Positions 1,112-58,300 of a DNA stretch of 64,000 nt are shown one piece after another (the stretch's first letter is position 1; each line of letters begins with the position of its first letter). The translations under genes were made by a program, and so were the position numbers. Origin of the DNA: Octopus vulgaris (taxonomy: Eukaryota); NCBI GenBank assembly GCA_951406725.2, contig OX597818.1:21080001-21144000 (forward strand). Reading direction: 5' to 3'. The notes below the pieces were generated by a model. It was not told where the DNA came from. It was given only the letters and a program-made list of their open reading frames with translations, and ran no database searches.

Positions 1112-1119
<8 letters not shown>

Positions 1120-1309
1120 TATATGTTACATTACTCGATAGTCAAGATAAAACTCTGAGTTTCAGATGCCGAAGTGGGAATCCACGACATCTGAAACTCA
1201 GAGTTTTATCTTGACTATCGAGTAATGTAACATATAACTGTATAGATAAATTTCCTCTATTTACATAATATTGAGGTCTCTTTCTTTCTTTTGTTATCTT
1301 ACCGTTTTA

Positions 1310-1310
<1 letters not shown>
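1112..1310 (+). repeat. Fold-back palindrome (57-bp arms) with unique 3' tail; probable PLE pLTR derivative
   Basis: 1112-1168 is the reverse complement of 1188-1244 with one mismatch; 19-nt loop; flanked by (TA)n. Confidence 0.85.
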
Positions 1311-1324
<14 letters not shown>

Positions 1325-1345
<21 letters not shown>

Positions 1346-1882
1346 TGAATTGCGTTTTTACCGCTTGGTTCGCTTTCAATGCCACTACGTCCCGTCCGAT
1401 TCGCTCCAAAATTTACACGGACATGTAGAATGAGGTGACGATGCGCGTGGGCTACCTTAGAAATCCCTATCTTAAAAGGTGTGGTTGCTAGGGGCCATCT
1501 TCCTACCTCACCCTATTTCCTCCAGTACTCTGTCACTCCTCTTCATTTGACAATGCAACTACCGTTATTTAATGTAAAGTCTTCCTCAAATCACTCTCGC
1601 TGTTTACTCTCTTCCAAGAACATTTTCACTCACTCTATCTCTTACCTTCCTATACATTTTACTCATGTATCTATCAGCGTTCATGGACAGTAACAAATAT
1701 TACATCGCCAGCCCCATCGCATTCTATTGTCTACCTGTCAACACACACACACACACACACACACGTATATATATACATATATCTAATATTATATTTTTAT
1801 GTTTTTGTTTTTTTACTGTTTCATTTCCCTATTAGTGGTTTGATCTCTAATTTAATTTCTACAGTGTGCACACACACACACA

Positions 1883-1931
<49 letters not shown>

Positions 1932-4900
1932 CTATATGTGGCCCCAGTAGACCCGAATGAAATCGGGTTCTCTTCATCAAAATGTGAAAAGGGGTCTAGA
2001 ATTATCATCGCCACAACTTATGTTTTTCCTAATGATAATTATCATCGCCACCACCAACACACAATCATGACAATCTTTCTCTTAAAACAAATCATGTTTA
2101 CATTGCAAAATATTTCATTTTCCCGTCCTCTCTTTCATATATGTGACCCAGGTTTGGGTGGCCGCACAACTACAATTAGACAACGGCTAAAAACATTCGA
2201 TGTTGATAATGCCTGGATCGTTCCATTCAACCCTTTGCTTTCCAAAACATTTAATGCACACATTAATGTTGAGTACTGCAGTTCGGTGAGATGCATACAA
2301 TACCTCTGCAAGTACATTAATAAGGGCGATGATATGGCCGTGTTTGTGTTCAGTGATGAATACCTTAGACATGACGAAATTAAACAATTTGTTTTCGGTA
2401 GGTATGTATCCTCCAATTATGCAGCGTGGCGCATTTTTGGATACGAGATTCATCTCAGCTCACCATCAGTTTTCCACCTGAATGGTCATTTACAGAAGAG
2501 ACAGCTGCTTTACTTCACAGAGAAAAATGCACGTCAAGTCATTGAAAATCCAAAAGGGACTACGCTTACAGCATTTTTTAAATTGTGTTCAGTTGATGAG
2601 TTTGCTGCTACTCTCATTTACCCTGAAGTACCGGAATATTACACATACAACAATAATAATTGGAAGCGCAGGTCACATGGAACAGAACTTAACAATTGGC
2701 CAGGTCTTTCTAGGAAGAACGTCATTGGGTGTGTGTATAATATTCATCCTACCAAACAGGATATCTCTTTGAGAATGCTACTTCATGTAGTTACTGGACC
2801 GAAGTCTTTTGCTGATCTTCGCACGGATGATGGTATCATCTGCGCCACTTACAGGGAAGCATGTTTGAGGTGCGGACTTCTTCTCAATGACGACCACTTA
2901 CACAGGACATTAGCAGAGGCCTCAAATTGTAAACTGCCATGGCAAATGCGTCGATTGTTTTGTAGCATATTAATCCACTGTAATCCCAGCAACCCTTTTA
3001 ACCTTCGGGAATCGTTCAGACAGAGCCTATCAAAGGACATACAGGCTAATTTAGCGCTACGTGATGGCAACGACGATGTTTATAATGAGGCATTAATCGA
3101 CATGGACAGACACATCAGACGCTATGTTATACGCGGTTTAAGTGAATTCCATCTGCCAACACCTGTCCATCATGAAGCGCCTTTGGATGTTGAATACATG
3201 TCAGAAACAAACTACAACATTGCCGAATTGACGGAAACAAGTACGCGAGATGAACCAAGACTTTTGCCTGAACAAAGAGAGATTTATAATGAAATTATTG
3301 ACAGCGTTAGATTGAACCAAGGAAAGCTGTTCTTTTTGAATGCTCCAGGTGGTACTGGTAAAACTTTCGTTATCAATTTGATTCTCGCAAAGCTGCGCGC
3401 TGAACGTCGAATTGCCATTGCATGTGCTTCAAGTGGTATTGCAGCGACACTGCTTCAAGGCGGCCGCACGGCATATAGTGCATTCAAATTGCCCATGGAC
3501 ATTGGAAAGAAAGATAATCCTATATGTAATATAGATCGTAGTTCCTCAAGAGCAAGACTTCTTCGTGAATGCAGTCTTTTTATTTGGGATGAGGCTACAA
3601 TGAGTAATAAGGCCATGTTTGAGGCTCTTGACAGAACTCTCCAAGATTTGCGTCACAATACAAAAATAATGGGTGGAGCTACGTTTCTCATGGCAGGAGA
3701 TTTTCGACAAACTCTTCCTGTTGTCCGAGCAGGCACTAGAGCCGATGAGGTTAATGCATGTATAAAGCATTCTTATGTGTGGCACAGTGTTATCAGTCGC
3801 CATCTTCAAACAAACATGAGAGTCCACCTACATGGTGATGTGGAGTCTGAGGCTTTCGCAAAACACCTATTAGATCTTGGTGATGGAGTTTTGCCTTTCG
3901 TTGATGATGAGCATATTCGGTTGCCTTTTGGGAATTTCGTTCCAAATGTAGAAGAACTTATAAGAGCCGTTTTACCTGACGTCGAAACCAACTTCCAGGA
4001 TCTCGATTGGCTAAGAGCAAGAGCTATTCTATCGCCTCATAATACAACCGCTGAGGCTACAAATAAACAAGTACTTGATATGAATCCTGGTGAGATAGTT
4101 TCTTTCATGTCCATCGATACAAATAAAGATGAGAATGATGCAGTCAAATATCCACCCGAGCTACTCAACAAGCTAACACCTCCGGGACTTCCACCTCATC
4201 ATTTGTGTTTGAAAGTTGGTGCTCCAATCATAGTGCTCAGAAATATGGAAACGCCTGAAATATGCAATGAAACCCGAATGGTTATTAGGAGGATTCAAAG
4301 CCATGTTATAACTGCTGAAATTTTGAGTGGACCATTTGTAGGAACAATCTAAATGATACATAAAATGAGTATTTCACCCTCTGATGTTCCCATTCAGTTT
4401 AAACGCTTTCAATTTCCGATAAAACTATGCTTCGCGATGACAATCAACAGGTCACAGGGACAATCACTGGACATTGTAGGCATTAACCTATCACAACCGG
4501 TTTTCAGTCATGGTCAATTGTACGTAGCCTGTTCTCGAGTTGGAAATCCACATAAACTCTTCATTCTTGGCAATCATGAGCGCACAAGGAACGTGGTTTA
4601 TCAGGAGGCTCTGACAAAAGAAAACTGATTGTAAGTCATGAAATTTTGCTTGATTTTTTATTTTGCACCTCTTCATTATCTCTTCATTCTTGAAAATAAA
4701 GACATTAAAAAGTACATGGTTCATAAAGAACGTTGGGTTCAGATGTTTGCAAACATTTGATCCAACTCATTCTCTTTATTCCTCATTTTCCGATTCCTTC
4801 TACGTCTACATTAAACGGTTTTGTCAAGTTATTGTTTCTTCGCTAACATAAGACATTCATAAAGTGAATGAGTTGTTAATTACATTTTATACACGATTCC

Positions 4901-40404: not shown

Positions 40405-40464
40405 GCTACACTGAAGAGAGAAGTAAGTAATTAAAACATTTTAATCTCGAAACGCGTATGTGGC
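40405..40464 (+). ncRNA. Minimal type I hammerhead ribozyme
   Basis: Stem I GCTACA/TGTGGC; core CTGAAGA (40411-40417); stem II GAGA/TCTC; GAAA; palindromic stem III ACGCGT; GUA cleavage triplet (40456-40458). Confidence 0.75.
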
Positions 40465-40888
40465 TAATCGGAGTCGTGTTGATTCATTGTTTTTCTCTTT
40501 GCCTACGTAAAAAAAGTGTGTTACTGTTGTGGAGATTCTTACAGTAGTAGAAAAGGAATTTTTAACTCCTATTTCTAAATTCGGTATGTGGTGAAGCAAT
40601 TAGCTGACCCCTAATTATAATTGTGTTTATAATTATAGAATATTTGTATAATTTTACCTAAAAAGGTTATTTTAAAGTACCGATCTACTTGGTAAAATTA
40701 TTAATTAATTGATTGATTAATTAGTTTAATTAATTAATTTTACCCTTTTATTATTAAATACATAATAACATATACCTGCATATGCATATAATACCCCGAT
40801 ACACACATTTTAGCTTACAAGTAAGAGGGTAAAAAAACCATTCAGTATAGAAGTAGATTGTAATTATTTATTGTAATGTTAAGATTGC

Positions 40889-58265: not shown

Positions 58266-58300
58266 GTTTAACGTTTCGAGCAGAGCTCTTCGTCGGAAAC
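58266..58300 (-). ncRNA. Minimal type I hammerhead ribozyme (U4C variant) in a PLE-like fragment (58165-58350)
   Basis: GTTT-CCGACGA-A-GAGC-TCT-GCTC-GAAA-CG-TT-AAAC: stem I GTTT/AAAC, palindromic stem III ACGT, GUU triplet. Confidence 0.65.

Follow-up and report, generated by a model that had tools for sequence, protein, structure and literature searches.

A 5'-truncated head-to-head Penelope-like insertion in Octopus vulgaris and the probable origin of its palindrome

Near the start of a 64,000-nt stretch of the Octopus vulgaris genome, analysed here as the window, a DNA palindrome lies embedded in (TA)n with half of a hammerhead ribozyme motif at its centre. The locus raises the question of whether the ribozyme fold turned a cDNA back on itself, as an earlier note on this DNA had proposed, or whether the two arms were made separately and then joined. 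A census of sister copies bears on how Penelope elements form such head-to-head inversions, and also on whether their hammerheads cut in vivo.

Structure of the palindrome in the window

The palindrome consists of two arms of 57 nt each (1112-1168 and 1188-1244) with one mismatch, an apparent loop of 19 nt (1169-1187) and a 68-nt tail on one side only (1245-1312, plus strand). It is flanked on either side by the (TA)n target microsatellite, at 1061-1115, overlapping the TATA end of the left arm, and at 1313-1341 (no strand assigned to either). The predicted fold has a z-score of -16, and none of 200 shuffled sequences is as stable, which bears out the fold-back palindrome described in the earlier note. 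Its reading of the right arm as the 3' half of a hammerhead also holds. Positions 1188-1211 on the plus strand comprise a stem II strand (1188-1191), an extra U (1192), GAAA (1193-1196), a quasi-palindromic stem III (1196-1204), H17 (1205) and a stem I strand (1206-1211), placing the predicted cut at 1205/1206, and this layout matches the published Hydra hammerheads set out in File S2 of PMC8557442. An Rfam scan of the palindrome gave no hammerhead match, only sub-threshold, microsatellite-driven miRNA matches.

When placed on the parent element, whose coordinates count backward from the tail end of one natural unit, the palindrome resolves into two overlapping copies. The tail-less arm, the longer of the two, occupies 1112-1192 on the minus strand, where it copies the parent in antisense between about -69 and -149 and covers hammerhead stem II in full. 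The tail-bearing arm (1188-1312, plus strand) is a sense copy from -122 to the tail end; in the parent, the 5' leader and the ORF come after the tail. The two arms share a 5-nt junction microhomology at 1188-1192 (no strand assigned), corresponding at the DNA level to the base of stem II and core A9. An inverted copy had been thought to stand in place of a missing 5' half; the 5' half is indeed absent, but the ‘loop’ is not foreign sequence, as the left arm continues as antisense parent through stem II to 1192 and overlaps the right arm by 5 nt. In this copy (L001), the tail arm ends at -122 (T) and the tail-less arm at -149 (N); neither extends to the core, and a complete hammerhead core is absent. 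A Hydra-clade Penelope-like element (PLE), inserted head to head and truncated at the 5' end, accounts for the palindrome, and the insert itself is ordinary transposon debris.

Elsewhere in the window, positions 1-120, 180-360 and 620-800 hold what we take to be SINE-like repeats of octopus genomes. A PIF1-like helicase frame (Pfam PF05970, E 6.5e-65) at 1851-4628 on the plus strand continues past one stop and is likely a Helitron remnant.

The parent element and its hammerhead

A genome search with the window element returned 1251 first-look candidates, 40 of which were scored; in 30 loci retrieved from it, the outer ends are common and the centre differs. A 17-nt pattern drawn from sequence 5' of stem II matches the genome exactly at 4858 places and led to a tandem array of units of 2579-2590 bp (about 2.58 kb), an earlier upstream pattern having matched one copy only. 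The parent unit is thus shorter than 3 kb, within the size of the Hydra clade, and contains one open frame of 717 codons. Its protein (P0001) carries RWK, DKT, a CxCX5C linker, CxxC and CxH, all read directly, and RT and GIY-YIG-like motifs are visible by eye (YKDD; IIYEA...YVG). A Pfam search with this protein gave no match and a PDB sequence search nothing informative, while part of its Atlas neighbours carry GIY-YIG, RVT_1 and HTH_animal. The same five motifs, RWK, DKT, CxCX5C, CxxC and CxH, define the Hydra clade in the available text of Craig et al. 2021 (PMC8557442). In the sister copies, (TA)3 lies within 30 nt of the tail-less end in 96 of 98 palindromes, identifying (TA)n as the target, and the insertion architecture of EN+ PLEs is present, with tandem units, an inverted 5'-truncated copy and the tail on one side. 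Judged by size, motifs and (TA)n target, the parent is a new family of a known kind, a member of the Hydra clade. The attribution of the window fragment to a PLE pLTR is confirmed by the recovery of this RT-encoding, Penelope-like parent. A young array at L062/L063 (C1:57208800-57222600) contains four tandem units, head to head with one partial and one full unit; its units are 99-100% identical, and one has an intact frame.

The hammerhead of the parent was parsed on the model of the homologous Hydra motifs in File S2 of PMC8557442. The parse places the 5' strand of stem I at -161 to -156, the core at -155 to -149, stem II at -148 to -119, an extra U at -118, GAAA from -117 and H17 at -105, with the predicted cut product starting at -104. 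GAAA and GUU, an NUH cleavage triplet, are present. Stems I and II contain five pairs with two-sided changes among nine sequences, a small and related set; none of 500 shuffles scored as high, and slid controls gave none or one. The core reads CCGAAGA, with C4 in 93 of the first 100 matches listed for a pattern allowing both bases, and U4 is retained in sister and distant families. A hammerhead is therefore predicted in the parent despite this U4C change, as the earlier note had expected, but without the canonical CUGANGA that it had named. U4C is a known weakened natural variant, with lower activity in vitro and sufficient activity in vivo in a viroid, according to the accessible part of PMC3088659. 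A fold in which the CCGAAG core pairs instead with the 3' strand of stem II reaches only 2% probability and was rejected as the reason for U4C.

A second very abundant repeat contains a minimal hammerhead (window 58273-58296, minus strand; L062, L067, L124, L128 and L210), with C4 in most copies seen and U variants in a few, so this genome has U4C in no fewer than two abundant families. Many copies of the second family have a common internal deletion removing the whole hammerhead (L329, L338, L343, L353, L354 and others) and seem to have multiplied as a subfamily lacking the ribozyme. The plus strand of the window holds a further hammerhead-like motif at about 40435-40480, in which the core is canonical and stem II long.

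Inversion centres, junctions and the route of insertion

Sister copies were collected with a variable-centre palindromic pattern, using exact anchors and centre gaps of up to 240 nt. This short-palindrome pattern has 863 genome matches in all, namely 104, 161, 429 and 169 for gaps of 0-60, 61-120, 121-180 and 181-240 nt, against 6, 6, 5 and 2 control matches in the same classes. The census comprises 100 insertions among the family matches listed on C1 and C2, three non-family matches having been dropped; in the 121-180 class, C2 was covered to 206 of 216 Mb. Of these palindromes, 97 have the tail on a single arm and two on both, with one unclear case. The longer arm ends between -195 and -156 in 72 of 98 (1.8 per nt), a zone just upstream of the ribozyme core that is likely the transcription start, and in stem II in only eight (0.25 per nt). 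Three longer arms end at -104, two of them with a common junction and flank, probably one event copied.

The exact stem II-base junction of the window occurs in none of the 98 census palindromes. A dedicated genome-wide pattern finds it in two of 23 matches, the window and L377, together with seven further junctions at or beside the apical hairpin of stem II. Junctions at the quasi-palindrome of stem III occur in nine of the 40 shortest palindromes (L226, L269, L275, L284, L285, L289, L217, L223 and L273), making it the strongest structure-linked junction hot spot among the shortest copies. An independent tail-anchored sample comprises 87 loci from the first 100 matches listed of 2418, with a head-to-head junction in 59. 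Among its 86 measured tail arms, 24 end at -195 to -156, 14 at -155 to -100 and 37 beyond -260. The census and this sample agree that stem II is not an inversion hot spot. Most inserts carry a complete hammerhead on both arms, so the description of such inserts as catalytically dead fits the window copy, which has no core, but not the family.

In the mechanism first proposed for this locus, a cDNA stalls in hammerhead stem II, folds back and primes itself, the ribozyme fold serving as the second-strand primer. The junctions at the stem II base in the window and L377, at or beside the apical hairpin and at the stem III palindrome are what such priming would leave, and self-priming is in print for head-to-head PLE palindromes (PMC3846280, in the part available). 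Against it stands the census distribution, in which the expected clustering of centres on stem II does not appear; moreover, the DNA hairpin is predicted to have little stability (-6.1 kcal/mol across 52 nt), and junction microhomology is supplied by any short inverted repeat of the parent. The tail is absent from the longer arm in the window, and a single fold-back cDNA cannot yield the tail-bearing arm. Self-priming at stem II is refuted as a general rule by the 98-palindrome census, and for the window copy, whose junction does coincide with the stem II base, it needs an added second, tail-primed cDNA; overall it is highly improbable. The idea of stem II as a dedicated second-strand primer is thereby removed. 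Even harder to credit is a MITE with fixed terminal inverted repeats, or a hairpin RNA gene under selection. The strong hairpin and the many copies of similar size would suit either, but the centres vary by copy, the arms range across the family from about 20 nt to more than 2 kb, only one side has a tail, the sequence comes from the pLTR of an element that encodes RT, and the Rfam miRNA matches are all sub-threshold. The MITE reading, set out in the earlier note as a possibility that would refute its proposal, was rejected on the same variation, fixed termini and length being absent; a TSD is unreadable inside (TA)n.

The arms themselves provide further evidence. Their lengths are coupled, lying within 6 nt of each other in 48 of 98 palindromes, compared with a mean of 17.3 and a maximum of 30 in 10,000 permutations. 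A difference of more than 6 nt favours the tail-less arm in 36 and the tail arm in 14, and in the youngest subfamily the corresponding counts are 17 and 4. Palindromes with a longer tail-less arm cannot derive from one tail-primed cDNA folding back, and a tail-less cDNA cannot supply the tail. Thirteen of the 98 junctions are zero-loop perfect palindromes and two more are near-perfect, mostly positioned on self-complementary GC, TA, CG, AT, TGGCCA or AACGTT. Of 53 clean junctions, 36 have microhomology of at least 2 nt, where chance would give 17%, and filler is present at 45 of 98, with most of the longer fillers matching nearby element sequence. Microhomology combined with locally templated filler is the signature of microhomology-mediated end joining. 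The 58-nt filler of L204 resembles the antisense ORF start of a related subfamily, which suggests a template jump to another RNA part. For the most part, the arms agree at subfamily sites (84 of 90 and 102 of 111), and long arms share private alleles, with two differences over 1435 nt in L070 and none over 1188 nt in L132; both arms thus usually come from one template. In L267, the arms of one insertion come from two subfamilies, and single-arm copies without a tail exist (L306 and L375).

With a probability of about 0.7, the insertion was made by two cDNAs primed from both ends of a (TA)n break and joined by microhomology, rather than by fold-back at stem II. The endonuclease of the element would open both strands of (TA)n, with reverse transcription primed by one target strand at the end of the tail and by the other at the TATA site that precedes the tail, about 65 nt earlier, usually on one and the same RNA molecule. 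Both reverse transcriptases would proceed toward the RNA 5' end, most cDNAs ending just upstream of the hammerhead, at the likely transcription start, and rare ones at the ribozyme cut, after which the two cDNA 3' ends would anneal or be end-joined and filled in. For the window copy, the meeting of the ends at the stem II base would be a coincidence, arising when the element inserted or when a subsequent deletion removed the sequence between the 5-nt direct repeats. Zero-loop junctions favour double priming, since two separate ends can anneal there and a hairpin primer cannot. The available portion of PMC11167929 describes a Poseidon PLE that, in vitro, cuts both strands of its target and extends them, starting at two sites that flank the tail, and this two-strand extension together with the census data makes double priming with end joining the best reading.

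A more general fold-back remains to be weighed, in which a tail-primed cDNA reaches the RNA 5' end, snaps back and copies itself, the second strand being captured by the other (TA)n end at TATA, with asymmetric centres arising through later deletions. Arm identity and shared private alleles are predicted by fold-back as much as by double priming, the coupling of arm lengths also agrees with it, and the TATA at the tail-less end could be the microhomology capture point of its second strand. Symmetric junctions become fewer with subfamily age (31 of 52, 9 of 20 and 4 of 21 from youngest to oldest; p=0.002 for youngest against oldest), which weakens the argument from longer tail-less arms; part of the asymmetry may be later erosion or central deletion, and the window junction may be one such case. 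However, within subfamilies the asymmetric copies are not more diverged, and the excess of longer tail-less arms is already present in the youngest subfamily. The zero-loop and blunt junctions, the mixed arms of L267 and the tail-less single-arm copies also count against a general fold-back, which is on balance unlikely. Our literature search, with subscription papers outside its coverage, found no paper proposing double priming for Penelope.

The ribozyme cut site and comparison with known systems

If the hammerhead cuts the RNA before reverse transcription, some arms should start at -104. A pattern for arms starting from -122 to -97 has 141 matches, 100 of them listed; 13 were dropped for internal deletions or degeneracy, and the 87 kept arms were tallied by hand, a script check on 30 loci agreeing at -104 and -103. 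Among the matches listed, 13 arms (11 insertions) start at -104 and nine at -103, compared with a mean of 3.3 and, behind these two, a highest count of 7. The excess at -104 has p 3e-5 by arms and 4e-4 by insertions, under a flat null that takes no account of microhomology; the sequence at -103 agrees with (TA)n, and overlaps of 3 nt occur at some of the -104 junctions. Both arms end near the cut at 17 places genome-wide. At five of these, each arm ends blunt at -104; blunt double ends at -105, -106, -107 or -108 occur at none of the 17. These five independent insertions differ in their flanks and represent three subfamilies. About one copy in a hundred carries the signal. In the second abundant U4C family, no cut-site excess was found (6 of 50 kept ends at -1/+1, p=0.24), 50 rows of the 100 matches listed (68 further matches) having been dropped as repeat-length variants, internal deletions, substitutions or degenerate rows.

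The excess at -104 is a modest hint of ribozyme cleavage in vivo, and from these genomic ends the odds that the hammerhead cleaves in vivo are put at about even. A fuller reading, whose chances fall a little short of even, would see here a fossil record in which the hammerhead cuts its own RNA in germ cells despite U4C, two reverse transcriptases run off the one cut end, and the inversions result from double priming. If true, double target priming at the RNA 3' end would replace the published self-priming idea. No paper reporting such a genomic cut-site footprint was found in the literature search.

The one-sided-tail, head-to-head architecture of PLEs is already in print. As described in the available parts of PMC8557442, the Hydra clade, including Hydra-1_Obim, shares with the parent a size below 3 kb, a single ORF, RWK, DKT, CxCX5C, CxxC/CxH and the (TA)n target, a pLTR hammerhead with a short palindromic stem III, and tandem plus inverted 5'-truncated copies with a one-sided tail; its supplement lists an octopus member with a hammerhead. 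The parent is a family distinct from Hydra-1_Obim, with a different hammerhead sequence (the proteins were compared by eye only). Its core has C4, whereas every Hydra hammerhead row of File S2 has U, and its tail measures 65-68 nt, compared with 30-40 in the clade. The Penelope of Adineta vaga (Arkhipova et al. 2013, PMC3846280, in part) likewise has head-to-head inverted repeats, junction palindromes, an optional tail on one side and 5' junction microhomology. There, the inversions are read as self-priming on an antisense template, whereas the present census favours two target-primed cDNAs.

Minimal PLE hammerheads, in the accessible text of Cervera and De la Pena 2014 (PMC4209133), have in common with the parent the type I motif, the G10.1-C11.1 pair, a weak palindromic helix III suiting dimers, and opposite-strand pairs 100-700 bp apart. 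The parent differs from that motif by U4C and by an extra nucleotide 3' of stem II, between C11.1 and G12. PAc Poseidon in vitro (PMC11167929) has an AT-rich target, extension of both strands, two RT start sites flanking the tail and a pLTR hammerhead, all observed or proposed here too. In the portion available, which does not treat the formation of inversions, Frangieh et al. 2024 (PMC11167929) report no RNA-seq reads ending at the hammerhead cut of their element, whereas a few genomic copies of the present family begin at that base.

The census of sister copies yields predictions, namely arms of mixed origin when two marked RNAs are supplied, blunt joining at the 5' end of the transcript and cutting at one named base, which could be tested in the existing in vitro system. 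In the twin priming of LINE-1, a single RNA is likewise primed by two target 3' ends and microhomology joins the cDNAs, the second primer being internal, so that an inversion without duplication results. In the octopus element, by contrast, both primers would lie at the RNA's 3' end, and the product is an inverted duplication.
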